The notes under the pieces: model-generated
The model's input: the letters and a program-made list of their open reading frames with translations, nothing else
Told to the model about the DNA's origin: nothing
Database searches by the model: none
Origin: a virus
DNA: 64,000 bases
Reading direction: 5' to 3' (one strand)
IMG/VR virus record: IMGVR_UViG_3300003316_000080
Location: 3,483-67,482 of that record
Program-made: the position numbers and the translations under genes
Part shown: positions 29,655 to 58,061 of the stretch, in pieces
How the letters are laid out: every line of letters starts with the position of its first letter
Position numbering within the stretch: position 1 is the first letter of the stretch

Positions 29655-31892
29655 ATGCCACGTGTCTTGACACCATCGCCTCTCACCGCCGAACTGCGTG
29701 CGGCAGGGTTTCCATGGGCAGATGATTCCGGTGTACTGCGCGCTGCCGATGGCACTGTCATCAGTAGCGGTGGGGGTGCGTCGACCTTCACTGCGCTGAC
29801 GGATAGTGCGAGTGCAGACATTCCTGCCACCAATGCACCGACAGCAGCAGCACTCGCTCTGAAGGCTAGTCTGGTGAATGGCGGTGTACCGACATCGCAA
29901 CTGCCGCGATCCACTGCAGCCGTGACGCTCTCTGCAACGACGAGTGCAACTCCCACAGACGGCACCTTTGCTGCGCTGCCGGCGCAGGCGTGTACGGAAC
30001 TGGAGGTATTCAACGACAGCCAAGTGCCCGTCGAGTACCGCCGTAATGGCGCCGGCAACGTCGTCACACTCCTGGCGAATCAGCGTCGCCGCATCCTCGG
30101 CATCACCGACGCCAGCCAGATCGCATTCCGGCGCTCTGACTACGCAGTGGCCGGCCGGACGCAGCCGACGACGATCTCTGTCCGTGCTCGCACGAACACG
30201 GACACGTACACGCTTGCCGGCACGCTGTCGATGGTGCTCAGTGGTGGTTCGTACACGGCGTTTAGCAGCCTCGCGTGTACGTCCATGGAGATCTTCAACA
30301 ACTGCAACCACGACATCCTCTTCACGATCGACAGCGGCACGGCGTACAAGCTGCGTCACGGTGAGTCGGCTGTGATTCTGGGCATCGCCAACGCCAACCA
30401 AGTGCGTGTCAAGACCTATGATTCGATCGCTCGTCAATCTCGCAATCTCGAGGCCGAGTGCTGGACGGTAGGTCTGGGTCGGGAGACGCTGAGTCCGTAC
30501 CGTGCAGACGCCATCACGGCTGAAGCCGACATTCTCAACGGCGAGCCCAACTATCCGAACCTTCAGCCAATCGGCGCGGTCCTGACGCTGGGCAACCTGC
30601 GTCCTGTGCCGCGTCTGCGCAAGAAGCCGGTGGAGTTGGCGAAGTGGGATCTGGCGGCCAATGTGGTCACCAACCGTGCGGCTGACTTCGCTGACATCAC
30701 ACCGGCCGCTGTGGGCAAGGACGAGATTACCTTCGGCACCACGATCGTCGAGTACACGCAGTCTCAGACGGCGGAAGTACTGATCGCTCCTGCTGGTGTG
30801 CAGTCCACACCGGTCGACGTCTCCAATGGCTCGATCCACTTCACGCATGTGTGGCCGGACAACGCCGGCAACAACTACGGCGTGAACGGGCCTTCCAGCT
30901 TCATCATCGAACTGCACAGCGCGGGCTCGCCGTCAGCGCCCACGGCCAACTACCACACCAGTGGCGTACTGAACTCGCTGAATGCGGGCTTCATGGGCGC
31001 GTCCACGCTGGGCTATAACCTGCAGCGCTGCTTCTCTCTGCCGATCAACGCATTCACTGCGGCTGGCACGGGTGCTACGCTGACGGCGATCACCTGGGCC
31101 CGCATTCGCATCACGGGCCCGTCGGCGTCCAACGGCTGCAAGTTGCGCCCTGTCCGCCTCGACTTCGTGCCCAACGCGTTGACGAAGGGGACGGTGATCT
31201 TCACCTTCGACGACCTGCACGCGGGCGCCTGGACCAACGCGCTGCCGATCATGTCGAAGTACTCGTACCCGGGCGTCCTGTGCATGGACACCACGGTCAA
31301 GATGGGCCAGTCAGGCTTCCTGACACCCGAGCAGATCATTCAGATGCACCAGACGTACGGCTGGGAGGTCGGCTATCAGGTCTATCAGAACGAAACGGGG
31401 TTCAACCTCAACTCCGAATCCTGGATGCGCCAGGTCGGCAAGTGGGTGCTGGAGATGAACCGTCTGGGCATCCACGAGACGTACAACGGCTCGTACGGCT
31501 CGGGCACTGTGACGAACGTCGACGAAGAACGGCTGATGGCTGCTCGCCGTGCACTGTCGACGATGCGTCGCTTCACCAGTGGCACGAACACGTCCCCGCC
31601 CTTCAAGAACCCGGAGACGGTGCCCTACGGCGACCCGTACAACCTGCGGTGCCTCAACATGAGCAGTGGCTTCACGGCCGGCACGATCTACGATCGCTGG
31701 AAGGATCACGTCGATCAGGCCGTTGCTGCAAAGGGCGTGGCGATCTTCGCGTGTCACAGTGAATTCAACGGCGCCGGTGAAGCGCTGACGGCACTCGGTA
31801 CGCTCTGCGCGTACATCCGCACGCTGGAACTGGCCGGCAACTGCCAAGTGACCACCTTCGCCGGTCTGAACAAGCAGGCTTACGGGGTCTGA
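29655..31892 (+). CDS. large protein with C-terminal polysaccharide deacetylase (CE4/NodB-like) domain
   Basis: AAGGGGA RBS; C-terminal VIFTFDDLHAGAWTNALPIMSKYSYPGVLCMDTTV matches the NodB motif-1 region; N-terminal ~450 aa Ser/Thr/Ala-rich. Confidence 0.55.
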   Translation: MPRVLTPSPLTAELRAAGFPWADDSGVLRAADGTVISSGGGASTFTALTDSASADIPATNAPTAAALALKASLVNGGVPTSQLPRSTAAVTLSATTSATPTDGTFAALPAQACTELEVFNDSQVPVEYRRNGAGNVVTLLANQRRRILGITDASQIAFRRSDYAVAGRTQPTTISVRARTNTDTYTLAGTLSMVLSGGSYTAFSSLACTSMEIFNNCNHDILFTIDSGTAYKLRHGESAVILGIANANQVRVKTYDSIARQSRNLEAECWTVGLGRETLSPYRADAITAEADILNGEPNYPNLQPIGAVLTLGNLRPVPRLRKKPVELAKWDLAANVVTNRAADFADITPAAVGKDEITFGTTIVEYTQSQTAEVLIAPAGVQSTPVDVSNGSIHFTHVWPDNAGNNYGVNGPSSFIIELHSAGSPSAPTANYHTSGVLNSLNAGFMGASTLGYNLQRCFSLPINAFTAAGTGATLTAITWARIRITGPSASNGCKLRPVRLDFVPNALTKGTVIFTFDDLHAGAWTNALPIMSKYSYPGVLCMDTTVKMGQSGFLTPEQIIQMHQTYGWEVGYQVYQNETGFNLNSESWMRQVGKWVLEMNRLGIHETYNGSYGSGTVTNVDEERLMAARRALSTMRRFTSGTNTSPPFKNPETVPYGDPYNLRCLNMSSGFTAGTIYDRWKDHVDQAVAAKGVAIFACHSEFNGAGEALTALGTLCAYIRTLELAGNCQVTTFAGLNKQAYGV

Positions 31893-34372: not shown

Positions 34373-34824
34373 AGCTCACCAAGAAACAACGTGAAGCCCT
34401 TAAACAGAAGTTCGGGGGCTTTTGTGCATATTGCGGCTGCAAACTTGGTGAGCGCTGGCAGGCGGATCACATACAGGCCGTTCAGCGCAGTGTGCAGGGA
34501 CATTGGGTGCGCCAAGACCCTAGCAAGCGCTGGTCGCCGATGGTGTTCAAGCGCACCGGCGTCACTGTGGGTCGGCCGGAACTGGACATCCTTGACAATC
34601 TTGCACCAGCGTGCGGACCTTGCAACGGCGATAAGTCCGATATGGACCTAGAGACGTGGCGCCATCGCCTCTCTCAAACATTGACCGTGCTGGGCAACAA
34701 CTACGGTCGGTACAAAGACGCCCTGCGCTTCGGGTTGATCGTCGAAACCCCCAAGCCCATAGAATTCCACTTCGAGCGGTGGCAACGGACCCCGCGCCGC
34801 CAACTGAAAGAGGACACCCTATGA
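34369..34824 (+). CDS. HNH endonuclease (packaging-associated position)
   Basis: CAYCGCKLGERWQADHIQAV...NLAPACGPCNGDK; immediately upstream of portal. Confidence 0.75.
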   Translation: MKLTKKQREALKQKFGGFCAYCGCKLGERWQADHIQAVQRSVQGHWVRQDPSKRWSPMVFKRTGVTVGRPELDILDNLAPACGPCNGDKSDMDLETWRHRLSQTLTVLGNNYGRYKDALRFGLIVETPKPIEFHFERWQRTPRRQLKEDTL

Positions 34825-45986: not shown

Positions 45987-46472
45987 ATGAGCAACATCGT
46001 AGAAGTCCAAGGTCAGAGGTACTCCATCGGAAGACTCGACGTGTTTGTGCAGATGCACATTGCACGTCGAGTCGGTACCGTCATCAACGAGATCGAAGCG
46101 GCCAAGTACGAGATGTACCAAGACGGCACGCTGGCAGAACTGATCGAAGGCGAAGATCCGGTGCTGAGGGCCTCGCGAATCATGCATGGCATGGTAAAGG
46201 CAGGCTGGCGCGCAATGGGCGCCATGGCACAAGATGACGCCGACTACGTGATGTTCGAGTGCCTGAAGGTCGTCCAGCGCGAGCAGCAAGGTGGCGACTG
46301 GGCCAAGGTCGTCACGGGCAAGCAAGCACTTTTCGCGGACATGACGGGACAGGTGCTGATGCGTCTGGTCGTCGAAGTCTGCAAGGAGAATCTGGCCGAT
46401 TTTTTTCCTTTGCTGAGCGGCATGCAAGATTCCTCGGAGAGTGCCGACACATCGTCGGCGACGGGGGCGTGA
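45987..46472 (+). CDS. tail assembly chaperone (zero-frame product)
   Basis: Between tube and tape measure; contains T7 slippery run near its 3' end. Confidence 0.55.
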   Translation: MSNIVEVQGQRYSIGRLDVFVQMHIARRVGTVINEIEAAKYEMYQDGTLAELIEGEDPVLRASRIMHGMVKAGWRAMGAMAQDDADYVMFECLKVVQREQQGGDWAKVVTGKQALFADMTGQVLMRLVVEVCKENLADFFPLLSGMQDSSESADTSSATGA

Positions 46473-46657
46473 CGCTCATAGGGCTGGAAGGAGGTGAGCA
46501 GTTCCTTCTCCAGCCCGTGCACGCAGGGATGTGCACATATCTGGATCTGAAGAACGGTTCTCTGTCCCTCTATGACGTGGCTCTGCTCAATGAGTACCTG
46601 GAAATGGAGGCAGAGAACAGAGCCCGCCTAGAAGCGGCACGACCAACAAGGAGTTGA
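46400..46657 (+). CDS. tail assembly chaperone -1 frameshift extension
   Basis: Heptamer T-TTT-TTT at 46400-46406 (codons gat ttt ttt); -1 frame stays open to 46657, 1 nt before tape-measure start. Confidence 0.5.
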   Translation, partial: FFSFAERHARFLGECRHIVGDGGVTLIGLEGGEQFLLQPVHAGMCTYLDLKNGSLSLYDVALLNEYLEMEAENRARLEAARPTRS

Positions 46658-46658
46658 C

Positions 46659-48104
46659 ATGGCAGCTGGTTCCTCTGAAGTCCTGCGCGAGTATCTGATT
46701 CGTCTGGGCTTCCAGATCGACCAGCGCGGCCAACGCAACTTCGACACGGCAACGGTCAACATCCAGAAACGCGTGATGGGAATCGCGCAGGCTGTGACCG
46801 CCGTGACGGGTGCTGCAACCGCAATGGTTGTCTCGTACACCCGCGACATGGAGAAGATGTATTACGCCTCCCGTAAAGCGGAGGCGCCTGTCGCAGCGCT
46901 GAACAACCTCGCATACGGATACCGTCAGATCGGACTGGATGGTAAACAGGCGATTGCCACAGTCGAAGGCATTGCACGCAGCATGCGCAGCAACCCGGGC
47001 TTGACGGCATTGCTGAAGGACCTGGGAGTGCCCGTGCAGGGCCGCACCAAAGATCAGGTACTGCTGGACCTCGTCGGTGCCTTGCGCAAGATGCCTGAGC
47101 ACATCGCCATCCAGTACGGCAACCTGTTTGGGATCGACCCTGATCAGCTGAAACTTCTTACTGAAGGCTATGACAAGTTGCTGGCTGCTGAGAAGCAGCG
47201 CCAGATGATGACGCAGGGTCTGAACATCGATACAGAGGCAGCGGCAAAGGCTGCTGTCGAATATGCGAATGCACTCGACAAGGTGACGGAGCGCGCCAAG
47301 ATCCTGTTTAGCGTCATTTCCGTTGGCATGCTGCCTTACTTCAAGCAGATGACGTCCAATCTGGACGAGATGCTGAAGAGCATGACACGCGTCGCTGCTT
47401 TTGCTCAAAAGGCCACGCCTGCTGAATTCTGGGCAGAGACGAAGAATCAGGCCCGGCTGCTGTGGGAGACGCTGTCGGGCAGTCGCGGCAGTGTGACGCT
47501 GAGCCCGCGAGCCCAGGCGCAGAAGGACACAGCAGGCTTGTCGGGCCTCCCCGCCCTCCCACCAGGGCCGCCAGCGCCAGCTGGCAATTTGCCCCTAGGC
47601 CTGCGGAACAACAATCCTGGCAACTTGCGCGCCGGCTTGGGTCAGACGGGCATGAACCGGGGGTTCGCAACTTTCGACACGCCGGAGCAGGGCCTTGCTG
47701 CAATGGCGCGGCAGCTACTGCTGTACCAGAACCGCGACGGCCTCAAGAACATCTCGCAGATCATCAAGAAGTACGCACCGGCCAGCGAGAACAACACACA
47801 GGCATACATCGACGCAGTAACGAAGGCGACAGGCTTCAACTCTCAGGAGTACATTGACCTCAACGCGACAGGCAATCTGGCCGCGATCATGGAGGCCATG
47901 GTCAAGCACGAGAATGGGCGCAATCCGTTCTCGTCTGCCCAGTTTGAGACAGCGGCACGTCAGGGTGCCGCCTTCCAGCAGCAGACCAATATCACCGTCT
48001 ATGGCGCCACAGACCCCACAGCAACGGCAAATGCCATCGGCGGTCAGCAGCGCTCTGTCAACTCCGATCTGATGCGTCAGATGGGCACACGCAAGGTGGA
48101 ATAA
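46659..48104 (+). CDS. tail tape measure protein
   Basis: AAGGAG RBS; long helical protein following chaperone pair. Confidence 0.55.
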   Translation: MAAGSSEVLREYLIRLGFQIDQRGQRNFDTATVNIQKRVMGIAQAVTAVTGAATAMVVSYTRDMEKMYYASRKAEAPVAALNNLAYGYRQIGLDGKQAIATVEGIARSMRSNPGLTALLKDLGVPVQGRTKDQVLLDLVGALRKMPEHIAIQYGNLFGIDPDQLKLLTEGYDKLLAAEKQRQMMTQGLNIDTEAAAKAAVEYANALDKVTERAKILFSVISVGMLPYFKQMTSNLDEMLKSMTRVAAFAQKATPAEFWAETKNQARLLWETLSGSRGSVTLSPRAQAQKDTAGLSGLPALPPGPPAPAGNLPLGLRNNNPGNLRAGLGQTGMNRGFATFDTPEQGLAAMARQLLLYQNRDGLKNISQIIKKYAPASENNTQAYIDAVTKATGFNSQEYIDLNATGNLAAIMEAMVKHENGRNPFSSAQFETAARQGAAFQQQTNITVYGATDPTATANAIGGQQRSVNSDLMRQMGTRKVE

Positions 48105-48740
48105 ATGTCAGGTGTCGGCATCATCGCAGCGGGGGCCCAACTGGGCCTCCAGTCCATTGTGGTTAAGCCCCGCCGCTCCATCGGCACACTAAGTCCACAG
48201 GTGACGATCTCTGAACTGCACACGGATGAACTCGACATCACGGACCATCCTGTCGAGCGTGGTTCTGTGATCACCGATCATTCGTACAAGCGACCGGCCG
48301 AGGTGGTCATTGAGTGCGGGTGGAGCAACTCGCCGTCGGAAACGGGCTACTTCAATGGGCTGCTCTCGGGCCTTGCCGGCACTGTGACTGGCGTTCAGTC
48401 ACTGCTGTCAGGCAACTCGGCGAGTCAGGTGCGCGAGTGGTACACGAAGTTGCTCAAACTGCAGGCCGATCGCGAGCCCTTCGATGTGTACACGGGCAAG
48501 CGCGTGTACAAGAACATGCTGATTCGTCAGATCATCACCCGCACCGATAAGAACACAGAAAACGTGTTGATGGTCACGGTGACTCTGCGTGAGGTGCTGC
48601 TGGTCAGCACCAAGGTGGTCACGCTGGCTGCTGACAAGAGCGCACAGAAGACACCGGACAAGACGCAGCCCACATCTGATCGCGGCACACAGGCCCTGGG
48701 TCCCGGATCGAGCTACACGACCCCAGGCCCGTCTAACTGA
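48105..48740 (+). CDS. tail/baseplate protein
   Basis: Position after tape measure. Confidence 0.45.
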   Translation: MSGVGIIAAGAQLGLQSIVVKPRRSIGTLSPQVTISELHTDELDITDHPVERGSVITDHSYKRPAEVVIECGWSNSPSETGYFNGLLSGLAGTVTGVQSLLSGNSASQVREWYTKLLKLQADREPFDVYTGKRVYKNMLIRQIITRTDKNTENVLMVTVTLREVLLVSTKVVTLAADKSAQKTPDKTQPTSDRGTQALGPGSSYTTPGPSN

Positions 48741-48747
48741 GGTGGCT

Positions 48748-49056
48748 ATGACTCCCTACGAAATTCCGTTGGTCAACGATCCGCAGACGCTGCAGATCCC
48801 GCTGGGCGGCGTCGTGTACACGCTCACGGTGCAATTCAACAGCATTGCCGGTTCGTGGACCCTCGACATCGCTGATGCGCAGCGCGTTCCTATCGTGTCT
48901 GGAATTCCACTGGTCACAGGTGTGGATCTGCTGGAACAGTACGAGTACCTGGGCATCGGCGGCCGGCTGGAGGTGCAGTCGGACGGTGATGTGACGGCTG
49001 TGCCCCAGTTCAACGACCTGGGAGTCACCGGTCGCCTCTTCTTCGTGGTGGAGTGA
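48748..49056 (+). CDS. small tail protein
   Basis: GAGGTGG RBS. Confidence 0.45.
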   Translation: MTPYEIPLVNDPQTLQIPLGGVVYTLTVQFNSIAGSWTLDIADAQRVPIVSGIPLVTGVDLLEQYEYLGIGGRLEVQSDGDVTAVPQFNDLGVTGRLFFVVE

Positions 49057-49997
49057 TGGCGAACTCTGATCTTCAGTACAAGCGCAAGTGCACCTTGGTC
49101 GTGACCGAGGGTGAGAAAGGTCTGGACCTTTCTGAACTGCGCATTACCTTCGCCACGCAGCAGCAGGACGTGGAAAGCCCTTCCAATGTGCTGATCCGCG
49201 TGTACAACCTCGCAGACGACACGGAGAAGCGCATCCGGGGCGAGTTCTCACGTGTGACGCTACAAGCTGGCTATGACGCTGCGTTTGGCGTCATCTTCCA
49301 AGGCCAGATCAAGCAATTTGGCATGGGCCGTGTCGATGCCAAGAACAAGTATCTGGACCTGCTTTGCGCGGATGGCGATGAGGCATACAACTTCGCTTAC
49401 GTCAACAAGACGTTGGCGGCAGGATCGAATGCGCGCGATGAGGTCAACGCGGCAGGTGCTGCCATGAAGCCCCACGGCATTGATATGGGCTACATCGCTG
49501 ATGCGACGGGCGGTGTGCTGCCGCGCGGCAAAGTGCTGTTCGGCCTCGCACGTGCGTCCATGCGCCGGGCAGCGCGCAACATGGGCACAAGCTGGACGAT
49601 CAATAACGGTCAGGTGAACGTGGTGCCGCTTGACGGCTACCTGCCTGGGGAAGCTGTCGCACTGAACTCGCAGACCGGCATGATCGGTGTGCCCCAGCAG
49701 ACGGAAAACGGACTGATCGTCACGTGCCTACTGAACCCAAAGATTGTGGTGGGTGGCCTCATCCAGATCAACGAGCGGGACATCAATCGCGTGATTGGTG
49801 CTCCTGGCAACACGGCTAACGTCGCTTACAACACGTACACAGGCGTGCAGCGCTTTGCGACCACGACCTTCGACGGCTTCTATCGTGTGATCGTTGCGGA
49901 ACACCGAGGCGACACGCGCGGCCAAGAGTGGTACACGACAATGACCTGCCTCGCAGTCAACCGTGACACGCTGAAGATTGCACCGGAGACGACATGA
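49053..49997 (+). CDS. baseplate hub-like protein
   Basis: ATGA overlap; position. Confidence 0.45.
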   Translation: MMANSDLQYKRKCTLVVTEGEKGLDLSELRITFATQQQDVESPSNVLIRVYNLADDTEKRIRGEFSRVTLQAGYDAAFGVIFQGQIKQFGMGRVDAKNKYLDLLCADGDEAYNFAYVNKTLAAGSNARDEVNAAGAAMKPHGIDMGYIADATGGVLPRGKVLFGLARASMRRAARNMGTSWTINNGQVNVVPLDGYLPGEAVALNSQTGMIGVPQQTENGLIVTCLLNPKIVVGGLIQINERDINRVIGAPGNTANVAYNTYTGVQRFATTTFDGFYRVIVAEHRGDTRGQEWYTTMTCLAVNRDTLKIAPETT

Positions 49998-50734
49998 GCG
50001 ACCGCCGCGAACGCATTGACGATCTGCCCACTGTCATGCAGGGCATGCTGGAGCAGTTCCAGTCCACCCTGTGGACGGCCATGCCGGCGCGGATCGTCAG
50101 CATCACCTCGATGCGAGACAAGATCATCGTGGATTGCCAGCCAACCCTGCGCTGCAAGTTCAACAACAAGGATGGTGGCTTTGAGTGGGTCGACATGCCA
50201 GTGCTCGCAGACGTGCCAGTTGTCTTTCCGTCAGGTGGTGGCTTCATGCTGGCCTTTCCACTGAAGATCGACGATGAGGTGCTGGTTGTCTTCGCCAATC
50301 GATGCATTGATGCTTGGTGGCAGAGCGGTGGTGTTCAGAACCAGATCGAGTTCCGTACCCACGACCTTTCTGATGGCTTCGCACTGCCGGGTCCTTTCTC
50401 ACAGCCACGTGTGCCCCCTCAACCACTGAACAGCAACAATGTGCAGTTGAGGAACATGGAAGGTGACACTTTCGTGGAGATCACACCAAGCGGAACGGTG
50501 CGCATCAAGGCGACAGAGAGCTTGGAAGTACAGACACCGGTGGTGACTATCGCTGCTACTGACCATATCCTTCTGAGCGCGCCGACGATCCAGATCAGCG
50601 GCGACGTCCAACAACTTGGCGGTGATGTGTCCTTCGCTGGCGGCACCCTCACCCACCAAGGTGTCAATGTGGGCAGTACCCACAAGCACAGTGGTGTGGC
50701 GCCGGGCAGCAGCAACACAGGAAACCCAGTATGA
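49994..50734 (+). CDS. baseplate spike protein (gpV-like)
   Basis: C-terminal GVNVGSTHKHSGVAPGSSNTGNP resembles the gpV/gp5-type spike tip. Confidence 0.6.
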   Translation: MSDRRERIDDLPTVMQGMLEQFQSTLWTAMPARIVSITSMRDKIIVDCQPTLRCKFNNKDGGFEWVDMPVLADVPVVFPSGGGFMLAFPLKIDDEVLVVFANRCIDAWWQSGGVQNQIEFRTHDLSDGFALPGPFSQPRVPPQPLNSNNVQLRNMEGDTFVEITPSGTVRIKATESLEVQTPVVTIAATDHILLSAPTIQISGDVQQLGGDVSFAGGTLTHQGVNVGSTHKHSGVAPGSSNTGNPV

Positions 50735-51087
50735 AGTACCGCAAACAAGATGCTGACGGCGACTACATCTTTGGGCGTGGTGACGCCCAGTTGTTTGTCG
50801 ATTCACCTGAAGGCGTTGCCCAGGCCATCAAGACGCGGCTACTGCTCGCCACTGGTGAGTGGTTCTTGGACGTCGACGCTGGCACGCCCTACAAGGAAAG
50901 CATTCTGGGCTACGGCACGCAGGGTTCGCGGGATCTCGCCGTCAAGGCGCGCATCCTCGAAACACCCGGAGTGTCTGAGATCCTAGAATACTCATCGGAC
51001 GTGACGAACCGTCAATTCACTGTGTCTGCCCGGGTGCAGACGATCTACAGCACCACGGTTCTGCCCACGATCAACGTGACCTTTTAA
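50731..51087 (+). CDS. baseplate protein W (gp25-like)
   Basis: 118 aa, GxW-type composition, between V-like and J-like genes. Confidence 0.55.
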   Translation: MKYRKQDADGDYIFGRGDAQLFVDSPEGVAQAIKTRLLLATGEWFLDVDAGTPYKESILGYGTQGSRDLAVKARILETPGVSEILEYSSDVTNRQFTVSARVQTIYSTTVLPTINVTF

Positions 51088-51096
51088 GAGGGCCGC

Positions 51097-52287
51097 ATGG
51101 CAACCTACCCGCTTTCCACGCTCGCCGCACAGGTCACAGCGACCGGCATCTCCGCTCCGTCCTATGCCGACATCTTCGAGTCGCTGAAGGCGTCGGCGCG
51201 CAACATCTTCGGACCGGATCTGTATCTCGAAGAGGACAGCCAGGACGGCCAACTGCTGGCTGTGTTTGCCTTGGCGATTCACGATGCCAACCAGACGGCG
51301 ATCAAGGTGTACAACGGCTTTAGTCCGCAGACGGCCCAGGGTGTGGGCCTGTCCAACGTGGTCAAGATCAATCACATCAAGCGAGCCCCTGCCTCAAATT
51401 CACAAGTTCTGCTAGAACTGACAGGCGTCGCCGGCACGACTATCAACACTGGTGTGGTGTCGGATGTCTTCGGCAATAAGTGGAACCTGCCAGGGGTTGT
51501 GGTGATTCCACCAGCCGGCACTATCACCGTGACGGCCGCGGCACAAGAGGTCGGCGCACTCAGTACCGGAATCGGCACGATTACTCAGATCGTCACTCCC
51601 GTCGCTGGCTGGCAGACAGTGACGAACCCAGCAGTACCCTCGCCGGGTCAGGCTGTCGAGTCTGATGCCGAGTTGCGCGCCCGTCAAGAGATCGCACCGG
51701 CACTGAACTCGTACACAGTATTGGATGGCCTTACCTCCAACCTGGAGGCGCTCACTGGTGTTGACTACGTGCGTGTGTACGAGAACGACACCAACGCGAC
51801 CGATTCCATGGGACTGCCAGCACACTCGATCGCTGCCGTGGTGCGCGGTGGTGACCTGCAAGACATTGTGGAGACGATCTACAAGTTGAAGGGACCCGGC
51901 GTCTATACGCATGGCACTACCAGTGGCACCGTGACTGACGTGAGCGGCACCGTCCACACGATCAGATACTTCGAGCCCACTGAAGAACCAATCAAGGCGG
52001 TGATCAACATCACGGCACTGACCAACTACACCAGTGTGACGGGCGACCGCATCAAGCAGGCGTTGGTTGACTATGTGAACGGCATGGACGTGGGTGAAGA
52101 CCTCGTGGTTAACCGCCTGTACACGCCAGCACTCCTGAATGGCGACCAGATCAACGAGACGTACAAGATCACGTCTCTGACAGCCTCGTTGTCTTCTGGA
52201 ACGCCTGGTACTGCCGACGTGCCCATCGCCTTCAATGAAAAGGCCATCTCTGATCTGTCTCAGATCACCCTTAACGTGACGGTCTGA
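51097..52287 (+). CDS. baseplate protein J-like
   Basis: ~396 aa following W-like gene. Confidence 0.55.
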   Translation: MATYPLSTLAAQVTATGISAPSYADIFESLKASARNIFGPDLYLEEDSQDGQLLAVFALAIHDANQTAIKVYNGFSPQTAQGVGLSNVVKINHIKRAPASNSQVLLELTGVAGTTINTGVVSDVFGNKWNLPGVVVIPPAGTITVTAAAQEVGALSTGIGTITQIVTPVAGWQTVTNPAVPSPGQAVESDAELRARQEIAPALNSYTVLDGLTSNLEALTGVDYVRVYENDTNATDSMGLPAHSIAAVVRGGDLQDIVETIYKLKGPGVYTHGTTSGTVTDVSGTVHTIRYFEPTEEPIKAVINITALTNYTSVTGDRIKQALVDYVNGMDVGEDLVVNRLYTPALLNGDQINETYKITSLTASLSSGTPGTADVPIAFNEKAISDLSQITLNVTV

Positions 52288-52289
52288 TC

Positions 52290-52931
52290 ATGTTCAATTA
52301 CACGAGTCTGATCACGAGCGAGCACCAGAAGCCGAAATTTACGGCGTGGGTGGAGGCGCTGACACAGCCATTCAACGACATCAACACCACGCAGGAAAAG
52401 ATTCAGGCCGGCTTTGACGTTGACGTGGCTGTGGGCGAACAACTGGACATGGTCGGCCTCTGGGTGGGCCTCAGCCGCGTTCAACAGGTGCCAATCGACG
52501 GCGTCTTCTTCACCTGGGACGATGCAGACCTGGGCTGGAACTTTGCTGTGTGGAAAGGCCCATTTGAGCCGACTCAAGGTGTTGTGTCGCTCGATGATGA
52601 GTCCTACCGCGCCGCAATTCTGGGCAAGATCGCCAGTAACTATTTTCTGGGCACCATCCAATCTGCAAACGAAATCGCGATGAACAGCTTCACGCTTTTT
52701 GGCGTGAATTACTTTTTCATCGATCACCAAGACATGAGCATTGACATCTACATCGCTGGTGGTGCATCGGCGGTGTTGATTGAAATGATCAGGCGTGGTG
52801 ACATCATCCCTAAGACGGCTGGTGTGCGCATCAATAGCATCACAGTTGCTCCGGGCCCGTTCTTTGCCCTCGATGCGCCCACAACACCTTTCAGCGCTGG
52901 CCTCGACGTTGGCGTCTTCAGCACCACCTAA
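52290..52931 (+). CDS. tail protein I-like
   Basis: Position between J-like gene and tail fibre. Confidence 0.5.
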   Translation: MFNYTSLITSEHQKPKFTAWVEALTQPFNDINTTQEKIQAGFDVDVAVGEQLDMVGLWVGLSRVQQVPIDGVFFTWDDADLGWNFAVWKGPFEPTQGVVSLDDESYRAAILGKIASNYFLGTIQSANEIAMNSFTLFGVNYFFIDHQDMSIDIYIAGGASAVLIEMIRRGDIIPKTAGVRINSITVAPGPFFALDAPTTPFSAGLDVGVFSTT

Positions 52932-52940
52932 GAGGAAACT

Positions 52941-53651
52941 ATGGCTACCACTGAGTATGTACCTTTCGCTAATGATCCGGCCGCGAATACACAGACGCCG
53001 GCTACATACACCGCAGACAGTCAGCGCACGATCGGCAACCAGCCCGGTATTGCTCGCAGTGAGTTCGTCAATACATCCTTGCGACAAGCATGCACAGGTG
53101 TGGCTGGCGTGGCTCAGTTTGCCGTCACAGAAGGCACGTTGGATCTGCCAGATGACGGTGATCCTGCCACTTTTGCGGCGGCGCTGAAGAATGCTATTCA
53201 GGCCCTCATCACCGGTGCGCAGTTCTGGAAGCCCGGTGATGTGAAAGCCACGATGGATTCAGGTGCGCAAACTGGTTGGCTCGAACTGAACGGCCAATTC
53301 ATCTTGCAAACGTCCTATCCAGCGCTGTATGCCATTGGTGTTGCGAATGGTTGGGCCACTACCGGCACTGGCCCGACAGCTGCTGTGCAGCTTCCTGATG
53401 GCCGCGCTGAATTCCTGCGTGGTGCTGATCTAGGTCGTAATGTGGATCCTGGGAGAACGTTGGGCAGTGCTCAAGGCTTTGCTATCCAGTCGCATACCCA
53501 CCAGATCATCGGTCTGCGTGATGCTGGGTCGGGTGGCCTTGACATCAACGGAGGCACTGGCCCTGTTGACGCTACTGGCAACACACAGGCCACTGGTGGC
53601 AGCGAAACGCGCCCCCGCAACATCACCGTCCGTTATCTGATCAAGACTTAA
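52941..53651 (+). CDS. tail fibre protein with collar domain
   Basis: AEFLRGADLGRNVDPGRTLGSAQGFAIQSHTHQ...ETRPRNI matches tail-collar motif; N-terminus similar to the next gene. Confidence 0.6.
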   Translation: MATTEYVPFANDPAANTQTPATYTADSQRTIGNQPGIARSEFVNTSLRQACTGVAGVAQFAVTEGTLDLPDDGDPATFAAALKNAIQALITGAQFWKPGDVKATMDSGAQTGWLELNGQFILQTSYPALYAIGVANGWATTGTGPTAAVQLPDGRAEFLRGADLGRNVDPGRTLGSAQGFAIQSHTHQIIGLRDAGSGGLDINGGTGPVDATGNTQATGGSETRPRNITVRYLIKT

Positions 53652-53660
53652 GGAGCCGTT

Positions 53661-55745
53661 ATGGCGACCAATGAATTTCTGCCCTTTGCCACAGACGCTG
53701 GCGCCGAGGTTGATACTCAGGCTGTGTGGGCTTCTCCTAGTGGTTACCGCCCGGTAGGTTATGGACCTGGGATTCTGACGAAAGAAAAGCTGAACAAGGC
53801 TCTTCGTCAGAGCACCTCTATCGCCTCTGCCGTCGCTCAATTGATGGCAGAGAACCTGCCCAGTGAAGACATCCTGGATAACGGTGACATCAACACGTTG
53901 GTGGACCAACTCTCGCGGGCTGTGATCACCGGTACATTCCTGAGTGGCACTGCCAGCACGCAGGGCTCGAACGCCGTTGGCACGCGTCAGAACTTGGCAG
54001 GGGCTGTCGATCGCACACAACATGAAAAGAACGCCGACTTCATCAGCGTGAAGGATTTCGGTGCTGTTGGTGACGGTGTGCACGATGACACGACGGCTTG
54101 CGTGGCCGCAGCCACGGCCGCTCTTGCAGTTGGAGCGGGTCTGTATTTTCCAGACGGCCGCTATTACATCAACGGACTTTTCAGTGTCCCGAACAAAGTA
54201 TCTTTGTATGGGTCTGGTAAGACTACCAGCGAGATCCAGTTCGGTTCCTCTGGAAGCCTTCGTGTGGTCGGCACATCACCCAGCTACGTGGGGCGTTTGT
54301 CTATCAGTCGACTAGGCTTGACCAATCAGGGCGCGGGTTCCCCCTTCGGCATTCAGTTCACGTATGCGACTCGCATCACGATGTACGACTGTGTCGTCTA
54401 TAACACCAGCATTCAACTGTCTGCGTTCTCGTACATCACCTTTGAAAACTGTGACCTGTTTGGTGGCAGCATTCAAGGCGACCACCCCACAGTCAACGAG
54501 ATCAGTGAAGCACTGAAGATCATCGGCTGCAACGGCAGCAACTTTGCGATTAACGTGAAGGACACTGCCGACGTTCTCGTGTCACGTACACATCTGCTTG
54601 GGCCCACCTCACAGATCATGATCCAGCGTGGCGAGCAAAACAGCGCGTTTTACCCACCTGTACAGATTGCCAATTGCATTGTGGATTCTGGTGATGATGA
54701 AGGCATTTATCTGATTGGCGTTGCGCCAAGAATTTCGGATACCTTCGTCAGCAGTGGTCGCACCAACCTGAAGTCAGGTGTGCGCTTGAATGATTGCATT
54801 GAAGGCAGCTTGATCGGTGTTACGGCGCGCTTTTGCGGCAATCATGGTCTGCATGTTGGCTTCAGCAAGCAGATCAAGGTTTTGGGGGGCCATTTTGACG
54901 ACAACAAGGTGTCGGGTGTGCGTATCGGTGATTCGTCAGATCTGACTTTCATCGGCAATACGATGATGAACCAGCCATCGTGGTTCGGTGGTAGCTACCC
55001 ACAGGTAAACGGCATCACGGATGAGCCCTCGAACTGCACGAACATCACATGCATCGGAAATCAGACGGTGGGCAACACGAGTGCTCAGGTGTACCTGCCG
55101 TCTGCTACCAACATCATCCACAGCAACGTCGGATACAACGAAGGTCGCCTGACCTGTGATAGCTGGCGCAACAACACGGACAATGCGGCGTCTCTTGGGA
55201 CTGCCGGCGCTAGATACACCGTGGTGCATGCGGTCAGTGGCACCATCAACACGTCAGATGCCAATGAAAAGCAGGATATCGAAGATATTCCTGTGGAGTG
55301 GTTAGAGGCATGGTCCTCCGTAAGGCGTGTGCGCTTCAAATGGAAGGACGCTGTGCAGAAGAAAGGCACCGGTGCCCGTTGGCACATCGGTCTGATTGCA
55401 CAAGAGATCTGGGAGGCTTTCGCCGCTCGCGGTATCGACGCGTTCGAGATTGGTCTTCTGTGTTATGACGCGTTCGAAGAAGTACCAGAGCGCACGGTGG
55501 AAGTGCCTGAAATCCCGGCACTCGTCATCGAGCACCCAGAAGTTCCTGAAGTGCTGGATGAAGACGGCCGTGTCATACAAGAATACAAGCCAGGATGGCA
55601 CGAAGTGGTCGAAGAAGCGCAGCCAAGCCGTGTAGTAGTCGTCCAGGAGTACAAGCCTGCTGGTGGTCGCTATGGTGTGCGTTACGAAGAGGCTGAGGCA
55701 CTAGAGGCCGCTTGGGTTCGCTGGAAATTGGAATCTCTTCAGTAA
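53661..55745 (+). CDS. tailspike: pectate-lyase-like beta-helix with C-terminal S74-type intramolecular chaperone
   Basis: KDFGAVGDGVHDDTTA (pectate-lyase-superfamily start), repetitive beta-helix region, C-terminal SDANEKQDIEDI...WHIGLIAQEI. Confidence 0.65.
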   Translation: MATNEFLPFATDAGAEVDTQAVWASPSGYRPVGYGPGILTKEKLNKALRQSTSIASAVAQLMAENLPSEDILDNGDINTLVDQLSRAVITGTFLSGTASTQGSNAVGTRQNLAGAVDRTQHEKNADFISVKDFGAVGDGVHDDTTACVAAATAALAVGAGLYFPDGRYYINGLFSVPNKVSLYGSGKTTSEIQFGSSGSLRVVGTSPSYVGRLSISRLGLTNQGAGSPFGIQFTYATRITMYDCVVYNTSIQLSAFSYITFENCDLFGGSIQGDHPTVNEISEALKIIGCNGSNFAINVKDTADVLVSRTHLLGPTSQIMIQRGEQNSAFYPPVQIANCIVDSGDDEGIYLIGVAPRISDTFVSSGRTNLKSGVRLNDCIEGSLIGVTARFCGNHGLHVGFSKQIKVLGGHFDDNKVSGVRIGDSSDLTFIGNTMMNQPSWFGGSYPQVNGITDEPSNCTNITCIGNQTVGNTSAQVYLPSATNIIHSNVGYNEGRLTCDSWRNNTDNAASLGTAGARYTVVHAVSGTINTSDANEKQDIEDIPVEWLEAWSSVRRVRFKWKDAVQKKGTGARWHIGLIAQEIWEAFAARGIDAFEIGLLCYDAFEEVPERTVEVPEIPALVIEHPEVPEVLDEDGRVIQEYKPGWHEVVEEAQPSRVVVVQEYKPAGGRYGVRYEEAEALEAAWVRWKLESLQ

Positions 55746-55782
55746 ACTTCTTACTGGGCCGCTGAAGTGGCGGCCTTTACAC
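55740..55782 (+). terminator. palindromic motif plus terminator hairpin after late operon
   Basis: CAGTAAACTTCTTACTG overlapping stop codon, then GGCCGC...GCGGCC hairpin and TTTACAC. Confidence 0.45.
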
Positions 55783-55793
55783 AAAGGGCGGAC

Positions 55794-56153
55794 ATGAGCC
55801 ATAACAGCTTGGAGGAGCCTTTCCGTTTGGGCAATGTGCCTGACGGACTGGCTTCTGGGGAGGCCAAGATCCTTGCGCAGATGATCATTGCCGTTGATCG
55901 TCGGTGCGAGCAGACGCACGAGGATCTGCCCGACATGATCTCAACCGCAGTGGCACGGCACCTGGAGGAGCGTGCATTGACGCCGGAGCAGCGGCAGTTC
56001 CTGCTGATGCTGATCAAGCGTGAAGAGCGACGCGATGCCCTGCGCAAGGCAGTGATCGAAAAGACGGTGACGGGTCTAATGTGGTCCCTCGTCGTGGCTG
56101 CAGGCGTCATCCTGCGGGAGTGGTTTCAATCTCACATGGGGAAGACGCCGTGA
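55794..56153 (+). CDS. putative holin
   Basis: Small protein with C-terminal TM helix, directly upstream of lysozyme. Confidence 0.4.
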   Translation: MSHNSLEEPFRLGNVPDGLASGEAKILAQMIIAVDRRCEQTHEDLPDMISTAVARHLEERALTPEQRQFLLMLIKREERRDALRKAVIEKTVTGLMWSLVVAAGVILREWFQSHMGKTP

Positions 56154-56938
56154 GCAAACTCGACGATGCCATCGCGCGACTGAATGCGCGGAACTTCAAC
56201 TGGCCCATTCCCTGGGAGGTCGTCGAGACGATGGCCCGCAAGGAGAACTGCTTTCTGGTCGCGTATCTGTGCCCTGCCGGCGTGTGGACGTGCGGCTGGG
56301 GCGAGACAGAAGGTGTGACGGCTTCGACGCGCTGGACGGCTGATCAAGCTGACCAGCGCTTCTTCGATTCCGTCAGCAAGTTCGCGGCCAAGGTGGAAGC
56401 GCTGTGTGCCGACGCACCTACCACACCGAACCAGCTGGGCGCCATGACCTCACTAGCGTACAACATTGGACTGGCCGGCTTCAGCACCTCGTCTGTGCTG
56501 AAGGCCCACAAGCGTGGAGAGAGTGCTGCTGCGGCCCGCGCCTTCTCCCTGTGGAACAAGATGCGTGTGGGCGGCAAGGGTCCGCTGGTGGAAGCTCGGG
56601 GCCTGACGGCCCGGCGCGCCATGGAAGCGGCGTTGTACCTCAAGCCCGAAGATGAAGCACCGGCCGAACTGACCAGTCAAGCCGTTGCTGACGAGAGCAA
56701 GCTGACAGCCTCGCCGATCAGCCAAGCCGGTGCTGCCACGGCGGCCACAGGTGTCGCGGCGACGCTGGCCTCCGTGAACGATCAGGCATCGACGGTGCAG
56801 ACGCTGACGTCGACGGTTGCCGGTATCGCGACGTCGATCGGTGTCCAGCCTGGGGTGCTGCTGGGCGCGGTGCTGGTGGGTGCCGGCGCTGTCACGTTGT
56901 ACTGGCGCTACCAGCAGCGCAAGGGTGGCTGGGCGTGA
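56150..56938 (+). CDS. endolysin, lysozyme-like with C-terminal membrane anchor
   Basis: GTGA overlap; GVWTCGWGETEGVT lysozyme catalytic motif; C-terminal hydrophobic helix. Confidence 0.7.
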   Translation: MSKLDDAIARLNARNFNWPIPWEVVETMARKENCFLVAYLCPAGVWTCGWGETEGVTASTRWTADQADQRFFDSVSKFAAKVEALCADAPTTPNQLGAMTSLAYNIGLAGFSTSSVLKAHKRGESAAAARAFSLWNKMRVGGKGPLVEARGLTARRAMEAALYLKPEDEAPAELTSQAVADESKLTASPISQAGAATAATGVAATLASVNDQASTVQTLTSTVAGIATSIGVQPGVLLGAVLVGAGAVTLYWRYQQRKGGWA

Positions 56939-57450
56939 TCTCAGCGCTTCTTTGGCTTGGCGGCCGTGCACTGAAGGTGTTGGGAAGCATCCCTGTGTGG
57001 GCGTACGCTGCGGCGGCACTCTTTGCCTGGGGTGCTTACGGCCACCACAAGGCTACGAGCGCCAAGCTGGAGGCCGTTCAGCAGGAAGCGCGGGCCGAAG
57101 CCAAGTTGCGTGAGCAGCAGGAGAGCAACAGAAATGACGAGTGGACACGGAACGAATCGAATCGACTCATCGCTGCCAGTCTGGCAAAAGCAAGGGAGCA
57201 TAGTCGGGCTGTTGAGCGTGATGCTGCTGGCCGGATGCGGGCACTTGCCGCAGCCTGGGCAGCAAGTGCAGCCAGTGCGGGTGCCGCCTCCTGCGCCGCA
57301 GCTGATGGAACCCCCGCCGTCGCAGTCCTTCGTGACGACGTTAGAGAAGTGCTTGTCAGCAACGCGGCCGTCGCGGACGGATTGCGAGATCAAGTGAAGG
57401 GTCTGCAGGACTACGTCACCAACGTATGCCGGCCCGCCAGCGCTCCTTAG
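56935..57450 (+). CDS. i-spanin (Rz-like)
   Basis: N-terminal TM, Ala/Glu/Arg-rich coiled coil; after endolysin. Confidence 0.55.
   Translation: MISALLWLGGRALKVLGSIPVWAYAAAALFAWGAYGHHKATSAKLEAVQQEARAEAKLREQQESNRNDEWTRNESNRLIAASLAKAREHSRAVERDAAGRMRALAAAWAASAASAGAASCAAADGTPAVAVLRDDVREVLVSNAAVADGLRDQVKGLQDYVTNVCRPASAP
57134..57397 (+). CDS. o-spanin (Rz1-like lipoprotein) embedded in i-spanin gene, +1 frame
   Basis: Lipobox LLAGC after hydrophobic segment; Pro-rich mature region; entirely within 56935..57450. Confidence 0.45.
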   Translation: MTSGHGTNRIDSSLPVWQKQGSIVGLLSVMLLAGCGHLPQPGQQVQPVRVPPPAPQLMEPPPSQSFVTTLEKCLSATRPSRTDCEIK

Positions 57451-58061
57451 TACCAGCCCTCCAGGCCGAGTCGAGTTCGCTGCTCACTCGGTAGACGCGC
57501 CTGCCCATCGGTGTAGTCGCGCAGCAGCTCCCGGGCCCGCGACAGATCGACCAGATCCTTTTCCGTGCTCAGGATCTCAGTCTGCTTGCCTTCAATCTTC
57601 TGTTGTATCAGGCCGCCGATCACGTTCTCGCCTGTCTCCTTGAGAAACCGCACAGACGACGCCTTGCGTGTCAGAAACGCGAGATCTTGTTGCAGATGCC
57701 TGATGGCTCGCTGGACCTGCGTGATGCGGTCAGCGATCACGATGTCCGTTGACTCGATCACGTCCATCAGGCCGGGCGCGTTCATGTTGGCCGTCAGCAC
57801 AGCACTGACAGCGTTCAGCATCACCTCGCGAGCATCAGTGTCCTTGTCGACCTGCTCGATGCGCTTTTCTTCATCCCATAGTCGGCGCTTCTCCGCGTCG
57901 AGCAGGATGCGCGCTGCCTCGTTGATCTGAACCATCACGGCCGGGTCGCCGCCGCGATCCGGGTGATTGTCCCAAGCGAACTTGCGCCGGGCCTTCTTGA
58001 TGTCGTCCAGGCTGCAATTCTTGTCGAGTTGCAGGATGCGATAAGGGTCGAAGTTGTCCAT
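57447..58061 (-). CDS. J-domain (DnaJ-like) protein
   Basis: DPYRILQL...ARRKFAWDNHPDRGGD with HPD tripeptide. Confidence 0.75.
   Translation of the reverse strand: MDNFDPYRILQLDKNCSLDDIKKARRKFAWDNHPDRGGDPAVMVQINEAARILLDAEKRRLWDEEKRIEQVDKDTDAREVMLNAVSAVLTANMNAPGLMDVIESTDIVIADRITQVQRAIRHLQQDLAFLTRKASSVRFLKETGENVIGGLIQQKIEGKQTEILSTEKDLVDLSRARELLRDYTDGQARLPSEQRTRLGLEGWY

Follow-up and report, generated by a model that had tools for sequence, protein, structure and literature searches.

A short tail fibre and a predicted depolymerase tailspike with homologous N-terminal anchors, encoded behind the wedge genes of a simple phage baseplate

Introduction

The baseplates of phages XM1 and Pam3 offer two fibre-docking platforms per wedge, which are occupied by means of an N-terminal helical attachment domain. 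In XM1, gp17 uses its C-terminal tail together with an internal loop to hold two spike trimers per wedge (PMC10457771). In Pam3, 12 fibres are mounted on two platforms per wedge, each through an N-terminal helical domain (PMC9942802). Klebsiella phage MMNM, which also has a simple baseplate, carries both a capsule depolymerase (MMNM_24) and a small globular fibre (MMNM_27; PMC11633184). TSP3 of phage CBA120 (ORF212; PDB 5W6F/6NW9) has an N-terminal Ackermannviridae head domain and a C-terminal beta-prism domain, and its two catalytic carboxylates, E362 and D426, are required for activity (PMC6517402).

Here, two adjacent genes of a metagenome-derived phage are analysed in a 64-kb stretch of its DNA, referred to below as the window. 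These genes probably encode the two receptor-binding proteins of an XM1/Pam3-type baseplate: related anchors would fix the trimers of both proteins to the wedge, ORF1 being a fibre and ORF2 a TSP3-like spike with S74 self-cleavage and a mobile cassette. As part of the same explanation, the source phage would be contractile-tailed, with a genome of ∼67 kb and a simple baseplate of this type.

Results

ORF1 (positions 52941–53651, + strand) encodes a putative short tail fibre of 236 aa, made up of a position-1 anchor and a fibre-tip receptor-binding domain, and ORF2 (53661–55745, + strand) a predicted tailspike depolymerase precursor of 694 aa. An earlier reading of this DNA, made from the sequence alone, had placed both ORFs exactly there and had quoted both N-terminal peptides correctly. 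The two genes are adjacent, lie on the + strand and directly follow baseplate wedge genes. These code for a J-like wedge protein of 396 aa, equivalent to T4 gp6 and XM1 gp16 (51097–52287, + strand; PF04865, 41.9 bits; phrog_6, 2.5e-59), and for a DUF2612/Phage_Wedge1 protein of 213 aa that is homologous to XM1 gp17 (52290–52931, + strand; PF11041, 143.9 bits; PDB 7kh1, E=1.3e-6). A Shine-Dalgarno-like sequence precedes each ORF (AAGAGGAAACT-ATG and AAGGAGCCGTT-ATG). In a scan for promoters and terminators, shuffled controls gave more promoter-like sites than the real sequence, and terminator-like sites exceeded these controls only about twofold; neither kind of site lay between ORF1 and ORF2 or just past ORF2. 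No tRNAs were found in the window. When the tail and lysis region was compared at the DNA level with 50,697 phage records, no close relative emerged, only short patches at 65–84%.

A scan of bacterial genomes with a five-sequence alignment as the query matched only Roseateles aquatilis CCUG 48205; the same kind of scan with a single-protein query gave no match. This one Roseateles genome is the sole hint of a host for the phage.

The two N-termini had been proposed to be related, and alignment bore this out: BLASTP found 36 identities in 94 positions between ORF1 and ORF2 (38%, E=6e-12). Both N-termini also matched phrog_11303 (ORF1 aa 1–86, E=1.1e-12; ORF2 aa 1–137, E=5.7e-18). Sequence comparison confirms a shared homologous domain of ∼95 residues, predicted to be mostly helical and to serve in attachment. 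It spans aa 1–95 in each protein, at 52941–53225 in ORF1 (+ strand; ‘class 1’, with helices predicted at residues 41–64 and 75–93) and at 53661–53945 in ORF2 (+ strand; ‘class 2’). The AF2 models of ORF1 and ORF2 are monomers in which confidence for the anchor is low or moderate, and no solved structure matches the anchor by sequence or by fold. A two-sequence profile built from both N-termini retrieved 3,820 clusters among 1.84 billion proteins, in which the anchor invariably occupied residues 1 to ∼95. All family-invariant positions are retained in the anchors of both ORF1 and ORF2. The anchor profile returned only 11 short fragments in a word-indexed protein search.

The anchors were found to group according to their place in the gene order, not according to phage. 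In a neighbour-joining tree of the ∼95 residues, computed without support values, the ORF1 anchor fell in a clade with the first anchors of phages L088, L090, L091 and L038, that of ORF2 grouped with the second anchor of L038, and the second anchors of L007 and L058 grouped together; the first anchors of the latter two phages were barely separated in the comparison (44% against 43%). The ORF1 and ORF2 anchors are 34–38% identical to each other, while each shows 59–80% identity to its positional counterpart in sibling phages, and the position-specific classes extend to L038, a distant phage. The tree and the identity matrix both place the ORF2 anchor with those of phages that have a single fibre. 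Clustering by position suggests an old duplication whose products have been kept as two classes. A recent tandem duplication is ruled out, since the anchors show no DNA-level repeat longer than 16 nt and group by position across phages. An invertible segment of the Mu/P1 type, or a shufflon, is likewise ruled out because both genes are complete, lie on the same strand and have their own ribosome-binding sites; direct and inverted repeats in the locus were all short and at chance level. Among related loci, only some 10% have two or more anchor genes (a single one was found in 62 of 69); L078 and L084–L086 have arrays of four or five.

Synteny and the known baseplate structures point to the protein that would hold these anchors. 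In 73 of 81 loci, the window included, the anchor gene comes directly after the DUF2612 gene, within a fixed order of spike, gp25, J, DUF2612 and fibre genes. The regions equivalent to those used for docking in XM1 are recognizable in the DUF2612 protein as a loop at about aa 75–96 and a C-terminal tail at about aa 184–213, and are kept in its relatives. No literature was found on ‘gp89’ (PDB 9zd7), the second DUF2612 structure. The sequence-only reading had suggested a common baseplate adaptor. The common anchor stands; judging from synteny and from analogy with XM1 and Pam3, the most likely partner of both anchors would be the DUF2612 wedge protein itself rather than a separate adaptor. Pam3-type disulfide tethering is not possible, since neither the wedge protein of the window nor the ORF2 anchor contains cysteines. 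The sibling phage L088 encodes Pam3_gp18-like and Dit-like hub proteins.

The two products had also been described as alternative receptor-binding proteins. A receptor-binding pair they appear to be, but calling them ‘alternative’ may be mistaken: the existence of two position-specific anchor classes and of two docking sites per wedge suggests that both proteins may be mounted together. By analogy, one of each could occupy the two docking platforms of every wedge, six of each per virion, a real possibility though somewhat less likely than not. Tentatively, the anchors could further be seen as an old sub-functionalised pair, class 1 fitting one DUF2612 platform (the internal loop or the C-terminal tail) and class 2 the other, so that a minimal XM1/Pam3-type baseplate would be equipped with conserved fibres and exchangeable depolymerase spikes in fixed numbers, six of each.

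It is also conceivable, though in our view unlikely, that ORF1 and ORF2 compete for the same docking sites, their proportions varying among virions or one of them predominating; the two would then be genuine alternatives, and no fixed set of six plus six would exist. The homology of the anchors and their common invariant residues would fit such competition, as would the large majority of related loci in which a single anchor gene fills the baseplate, and the presence of one protein on both platforms in XM1 and Pam3. The identities given above speak against it, as each anchor is much closer to its positional counterpart in other phages, as far as L038, than to its neighbour. Position-specific classes are the pattern expected of non-interchangeable sites, not of free competition.

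With respect to ORF2, the sequence-only reading had announced a pectate-lyase-like beta-helix. The fold was recovered: PF12708 (formerly Pectate_lyase_3) matched aa 127–197 with 45.8 bits (cut-off 27), PF13229 (Beta_helix) scored 37.2 bits (cut-off 25.9), and the AF2 model, with pLDDT mostly above 90 over aa 125–490, shows a right-handed parallel beta-helix forming the putative enzymatic body (aa ∼125–490; 54033–55130, + strand). The lyase class is not favoured. The best Foldseek match to the model was CBA120 TSP3, a glycoside hydrolase (6nw9, E=4.1e-18), which was also found by phmmer against the PDB (5w6f/6nw9, E=1.8e-17). The TSP3 residues E362, D383 and D426 align with the candidate carboxylates E283 (54507–54509), D304 (54570–54572) and D342 (54684–54686) of ORF2, all of them invariant in its 12 closest homologues. 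With TSP3 as the nearest characterized relative and its active-site carboxylates aligned, ORF2 is more likely to be a hydrolase than a lyase. The beta-helix matches and the TSP3-like fold uphold the proposal of a polysaccharide depolymerase, as a predicted activity. Sequence and model suggest, as the most likely role of ORF2, the hydrolysis via E283 and D342 of a polysaccharide on the host surface (O-antigen, capsule or EPS).

That the beta-helix is instead a lyase, an epimerase or some other enzyme of modification, or a spike that only binds, seems improbable. PF12708 does include rhamnogalacturonases and epimerases, the mannuronan C5-epimerases AlgE4 and AlgE6 came second in the Foldseek search (E∼1e-11), with polysaccharide lyases lower in the list, and identity to TSP3 is only ∼25%. 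However, TSP3 ranks best by sequence and by structure, and the alignment of both of its essential carboxylates, plus the neighbouring Asp, with invariant residues favours a hydrolase.

The beta-helix is followed by a linker (aa 491–531; 55131–55253, + strand) that is presumed to form an intertwined trimeric stalk; pLDDT falls below 50 over aa 495–532 of the monomer model, and End_tail_spike (PF12219) matched aa 453–531 below threshold (E=0.0016). Behind this segment, the last 163 residues (aa 532–694; 55254–55742, + strand) form a Peptidase_S74 intramolecular chaperone domain. Such a domain had been proposed on the basis of an S-D-x-N-x-K motif, and both the domain and the motif are present: PF13884 matched aa 532–591 with 58.1 bits (cut-off 22), and the motif reads SDANEK (aa 532–537; 55254–55271). 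PDB sequences matching the domain include the chaperone of the K1F endosialidase (3gw6, E=3.6e-20) and phi29 gp12 (3gud, E=1.4e-15). These chaperones use a Ser-Lys dyad, with the nucleophilic Ser at the start of the domain and the Lys five residues downstream (Ser911/Lys916 in endoNF). S532, D533 and K537 are kept in S74-bearing homologues, and K537 aligns with the Lys of 3gw6. Cleavage is predicted to occur after S532, releasing ∼162 residues. The pairing of this anchor with an S74 domain is rare in the anchor family; among the 150 top representatives it was seen once, in ORF2 itself.

Comparison of the window with sibling phages showed ORF2 to be divided into a conserved and an exchanged part. 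In blastn, homology between the window and L088, the closest sibling, was limited to positions 46001–53810 (90%) and 55738–58054 (95%). The stretch between them (53811–55737, + strand) lacks DNA similarity to L088 and, together with the protein comparison, delimits an exchangeable host-range cassette. The flanking genes of L088 and L090 are 88–100% identical to those of the window, except for the L090 central spike (58%). ORF2 is conserved over its first ∼88 residues with respect to L088 and over ∼170 with respect to L090, the remainder being unrelated; its anchor is 61–63% identical to the sibling anchors. Counterparts of the ORF2 body and S74 domain, at 57–65% identity, occur behind other N-termini in phages of unrelated background, one of them a prophage of Roseateles aquatilis. 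The enzyme body and the chaperone appear to recombine just behind the anchor and would so set host range. The role in host range put forward in the sequence-only reading is supported by the two siblings, which carry unrelated ORF2 bodies while keeping the anchor and most neighbouring genes.

ORF1, on the other hand, is 72–76% identical in L088 and L090. Its C-terminal part (aa 96–236; 53226–53648, + strand) resembles a collar or T4 gp12/gp37-like receptor-binding tip in fold and has the conserved HxH metal-site motif (H185-x-H187; 53493–53501); Collar (PF07484) scored 20.9 bits, under the curated cut-off of 24. Conservation of ORF1 among sibling phages suggests that its target is probably a conserved outer-membrane or LPS-core receptor.

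Gp10_C-type domains act as docking platforms in branched receptor-binding systems. That the chief role of ORF1 is to act as an adaptor or branch point from which ORF2 hangs, as in the CBA120, G7C or KP32-type branched complexes, is very improbable: a T4 Gp10_C domain is present in the first gene of the dual-anchor loci of L007 and L058, and ORF1 is better conserved than ORF2, but ORF1 had no Gp10_C match in Pfam, its C-terminus resembles a receptor-binding tip with HxH, and the ORF2 anchor is canonical and groups with those of single-fibre phages, which must bind the baseplate directly.

Discussion

In the mechanism proposed, the anchor of each protein would fix a trimer to the wedge formed by the DUF2612 and J-like proteins. 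The short fibre tip of ORF1 would bind the receptor, and the ORF2 trimer would cut the host polysaccharide with E283 and D342, the active site probably being a cleft where subunits meet. The S74 domain would chaperone folding of the ORF2 trimer and then cut itself off after S532 by means of the Ser532/Lys537 dyad. The enzyme body and chaperone would behave as a mobile cassette, exchanged just behind the anchor.

The locus offers a clean natural example of cassette cut-and-paste sites, one behind the ∼90-residue anchor and the other at the stop codon, and the anchor family could serve to transplant receptor-binding modules to baseplates of the simple myophage or tailocin-like kind. If the anchor classes are site-specific, this would explain how dual receptor specificity can evolve on minimal baseplates with two platforms per wedge. 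Sub-functionalised anchors, if such they are, would be a simple way, not described before, of turning a baseplate with one fibre into one for two receptors, and the loci with four or five anchor genes would be open to the same interpretation.

Each part of the locus has known parallels. ORF1 recalls T4 gp12 and gp37, although, at 236 aa, it is far shorter, has no long shaft and has a different N-terminal attachment domain. ORF2 and TSP3 have a right-handed beta-helix in common, TSP3 being the best sequence and structure match over ORF2 aa ∼96–482. They differ, beyond their low identity, in the DUF2612-associated anchor and the S74 chaperone of ORF2; no S74 match was seen in TSP3. The K1F endosialidase (3GW6), phi29 gp12 (3GUD) and the T5 L-shaped fibre (4UW8) share with ORF2 a C-terminal domain of ∼160 residues that has the same Ser…Lys spacing, in ORF2 likewise behind a tailspike body; in ORF2, where cleavage is a prediction, the passenger is a TSP3-like beta-helix and not a sialidase propeller.

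The combination of a depolymerase and a small fibre on a minimalist myophage is likened to that of MMNM by description rather than by sequence. The two MMNM genes lie apart from each other and the depolymerase is located at the collar; a common anchor is not described in that paper (PMC11633184). Depolymerase tailspikes that carry an S74 chaperone and stand beside a second fibre are already well known, and as an instance of modular host-recognition genes in phages the locus is fairly ordinary. Its gene order and wedge architecture are those of XM1 (gp16/gp17/gp18) and Pam3 (gp22/gp23/gp24). The anchor is likened to the attachment domains of Pam3 gp24 and XM1 gp18, with no detectable sequence or fold match to any solved fibre. 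While in XM1 and Pam3 a single fibre or spike gene fills all 12 positions, the window contains two genes with diverged anchors.

Two adjacent fibre genes with related N-termini

ORF1 (52941-53651, + strand, 236 aa) and ORF2 (53661-55745, + strand, 694 aa) are separated by 9 nt, and each is preceded by a Shine-Dalgarno-like sequence. The sequence-only reading proposed that these two fibre genes have related N-termini, and the peptides it quoted matched both ORFs exactly. BLASTP aligned residues 1-92 of ORF1 with residues 1-91 of ORF2 (38% identity, E=6e-12), and phrog_11303 ('tail fiber') was the PHROG match of both N-termini (E=1.1e-12 for ORF1, E=5.7e-18 for ORF2); the likeness is therefore real, and not an effect of composition or chance. 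Taken as a whole, the earlier finding was judged correct.

The C-terminal 140 aa of ORF1 matched tail-collar and short-fibre PHROGs (phrog_523, E=8e-29). The Pfam Collar score of ORF1 was just below the cut-off (20.9 vs 24); PF07484 was present in most ORF1 homologues, and Foldseek matches to the same tail-collar/short-fibre proteins were weak (E~1e-2). Together with an H185-x-H187 motif conserved across collar-domain homologues, these matches identify ORF1 as a short fibre that ends in a receptor-binding tip.

A profile built from both N-termini and scored against 1.84 billion representative proteins retrieved 3,820 clusters at E<=1e-3, of which 1,492 reached E<=1e-10. In every case residues 1 to ~95 were matched, in proteins of ~110-700 aa. 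The modules that follow this anchor in the 150 best representatives included Collar (23), Gp53-like_C (20), Gly_rich_2 (15) and beta-helices (3), while Peptidase_S74 occurred once, in ORF2 itself.

The two genes close a simple baseplate module that begins with the central spike (49994-50734) and continues with a gp25-like sheath initiator (50731), a J-like wedge (51097) and a DUF2612 wedge (52290). The order spike, gp25, J, DUF2612, fibre is fixed at anchor loci, and the DUF2612 gene lay immediately 5′ of the anchor gene in 73 of 81 anchor-bearing loci (80 IMG/VR viral-contig loci plus the window). Linkage this close suggests that the anchor binds the wedge. The DUF2612 protein of the window was homologous to gp17 of phage XM1 (7kh1, E=1.3e-6). 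In XM1, each gp17 carries two spike trimers, on loop 80-106 and the C-terminal segment 201-242, and the twelve spikes all derive from one gene (PMC10457771). The corresponding stretches in the window's DUF2612 protein (~aa 75-96 and ~184-213) were among its best-conserved parts across the dual-fibre relatives. The window anchors were predicted to be helical and matched no solved structure, so their equivalence to the attachment domain of Pam3 or XM1 is something we infer.

The second fibre is a beta-helix tailspike with a chaperone domain

Three families exceeded their curated Pfam cut-offs in ORF2: PF12708 (formerly Pectate_lyase_3; aa 127-197), PF13229 (Beta_helix; aa 334-489) and PF13884 (Peptidase_S74; aa 532-591). 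AlphaFold2, run with 20 homologues, modelled a confident beta-helix (pLDDT mostly >90 over aa ~125-490), in agreement with the fold first proposed. The best solved match to aa 96-482 in sequence searches was the tailspike CBA120 TSP3 (5w6f/6nw9, E=1.8e-17), which was again the top Foldseek match of the model (E=4e-18). TSP3 is an experimentally characterised glycosidase in which E362 and D426, from adjacent subunits, are required for activity, with D383 nearby (PMC6517402). In a HMMER alignment, TSP3 E362, D426 and D383 corresponded to ORF2 E283, D342 and D304, which were invariant in 12/12 of the closest ORF2 homologues. With these residues aligned and invariant, the ORF2 body is read as a probable glycoside hydrolase; the initial term 'pectate-lyase-like' applies to the fold alone. 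A non-hydrolytic activity is possible, given an identity to TSP3 of only 25%.

For aa 452-652, the best solved match in sequence searches was the K1F endosialidase chaperone domain 3gw6 (E=3.6e-20). The S74 domain starts with S532-D-A-N-E-K537, so the C-terminal chaperone with an S-D-x-N-x-K motif was borne out. S74-bearing homologues conserve the S, the D and the K, and S532 and K537 are spaced like the Ser and Lys of the S74-family catalytic dyad. Cleavage after S532 would release a chaperone of ~162 aa and leave a mature spike of 532 aa.

Anchors cluster by gene position

Of the 69 IMG/VR loci in which 1.5 kb or more followed the first anchor gene, only 7 had at least two anchor genes: two each in L007, L038 and L058, four each in L084-L086 and five in L078. 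A second copy was detected in 0/30 deposited anchor-bearing phage records at tblastn sensitivity.

Both an identity matrix and a neighbour-joining tree (without support values, the pairing of the first anchors of L007 and L058 not being resolved) grouped anchors by gene position, not by phage. The position-1 clade held the first anchors of the window, its siblings L088 and L090, L091 and L038; the position-2 clade, placed among anchors of single-fibre phages, held the second anchors of the window, both siblings and L038. The second anchors of L007 and L058 paired together. In the matrix, the two window anchors were 34% identical, while their positional counterparts in the siblings were 78-80% (first) and 59-73% (second) identical to them. 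This grouping and these values argue for an old duplication that would have been maintained as two anchor classes.

The first gene of the dual-anchor pair contains a T4 Gp10_C domain in L007:8680-10961 and L058:5356-7302, and Gp53-like_C in L038:3090-5974. The Gp10_C domains suggest that ORF1 might be an adaptor carrying ORF2; however, ORF2 has a canonical wedge-type anchor of its own, and ORF1 resembles a receptor-binding tip. Both proteins may instead compete freely for the same docking sites, but the position-specific anchor classes make this less likely. An invertible-segment mechanism and a recent duplication of the anchors were excluded because meaningful repeats were absent. Two maintained classes, one per docking platform (six plus six), would fit; that they are specialised by site is a tentative proposal, which we consider rather less than probable.

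L007 resembles a prophage and has an integrase-like ORF downstream; the DUF4376 protein that follows its second anchor gene may be a fibre assembly factor. L078:1265-8616 (IMGVR_UViG_2848546203_000002) contains five same-strand genes that all open with an anchor variant 'KNDFKAFS...' and all differ at the C-terminus; L084, L085 and L086 have like arrays of four same-strand anchor genes, their C-termini all different. No DUF2612 or J-like homologue was detected beside these arrays (phmmer), which look like multi-receptor-binding-protein arrays of a different phage group.

Exchange of the tailspike cassette, and its genome context

The window covers most of a phage genome of ~67 kb, an identical ORF2 being encoded on a metagenome contig of 67,482 bp; no close relatives were found among 50,697 deposited phage genomes, and no tRNA genes in the window. 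Its structural genes run terminase, portal, protease, capsid, sheath, tape measure, hub, and its replication genes encode a DnaB-like helicase, an SNF2 helicase, a family A polymerase, gp32-like and RecA-like proteins and a methylase. The polymerase (8159-10792) has an N-terminal uracil-DNA-glycosylase-superfamily domain (PF03167, 27.9 bits). In the head module, 3′ of the large terminase (portal gene at 34656), a 745-aa ORF (29655-31892) matched solely phrog_19032 (unknown function) and, below threshold, polysaccharide deacetylase (20 bits vs a cut-off of 23.1).

Downstream of ORF2 lie the lysis genes: p119, a lysozyme-family endolysin and a spanin-like protein. The 119-aa protein (55794-56153), lying between tailspike and endolysin and 93-99% conserved in the siblings, has no family match and a single C-terminal hydrophobic segment; where it lies suggests a holin or other lysis factor. 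The endolysin (56150-56938, PF00959), 98% conserved in both siblings, has a C-terminal hydrophobic stretch that resembles a transmembrane segment (~aa 230-250 of 262), and lacks an N-terminal signal-anchor. Directly past the lysis genes, a DnaJ-domain protein is encoded on the - strand (57447-58061), with a DnaJ-domain gene of equal length at the same position in both siblings.

L088 (a 66-kb contig) and L090 share the gene layout of the window, with 88-100% identity to it in hub, gp25, J, DUF2612, p119, endolysin and p171. ORF1 was 72-76% identical over its full length. ORF2 was alignable over only the first ~88 aa with L088 and 170 aa with L090, and the sibling proteins at its position have unrelated bodies (646 and 612 aa) and no S74 domain. 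DNA homology to L088 ends at 53810 and restarts at 55738, a few bases 5′ of the ORF2 stop. The ORF2 body and chaperone were 57-65% identical to anchor-less proteins in other phage types, among them a Roseateles aquatilis prophage with a T7-like terminase and a contig with a P22-type gene. As the R. aquatilis genome was the only match among 185,579 species genomes, it gives a weak hint of the host. The central spike is a second locally divergent tail-tip gene, 96% identical to that of L088 and only 58% to that of L090, between genes 88-90% identical.

Comparison with known systems

Tailspike depolymerases and S74 chaperones are already familiar, and so are conserved anchors fused to exchangeable bodies and phages that have two receptor-binding proteins, such as a minimal Klebsiella myophage with a depolymerase and a fibre (PMC11633184). 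Specific to the phage described here are two diverged DUF2612-associated anchors, paired on a baseplate type known for two docking platforms, and the rare combination of such an anchor with a beta-helix and S74 cassette.
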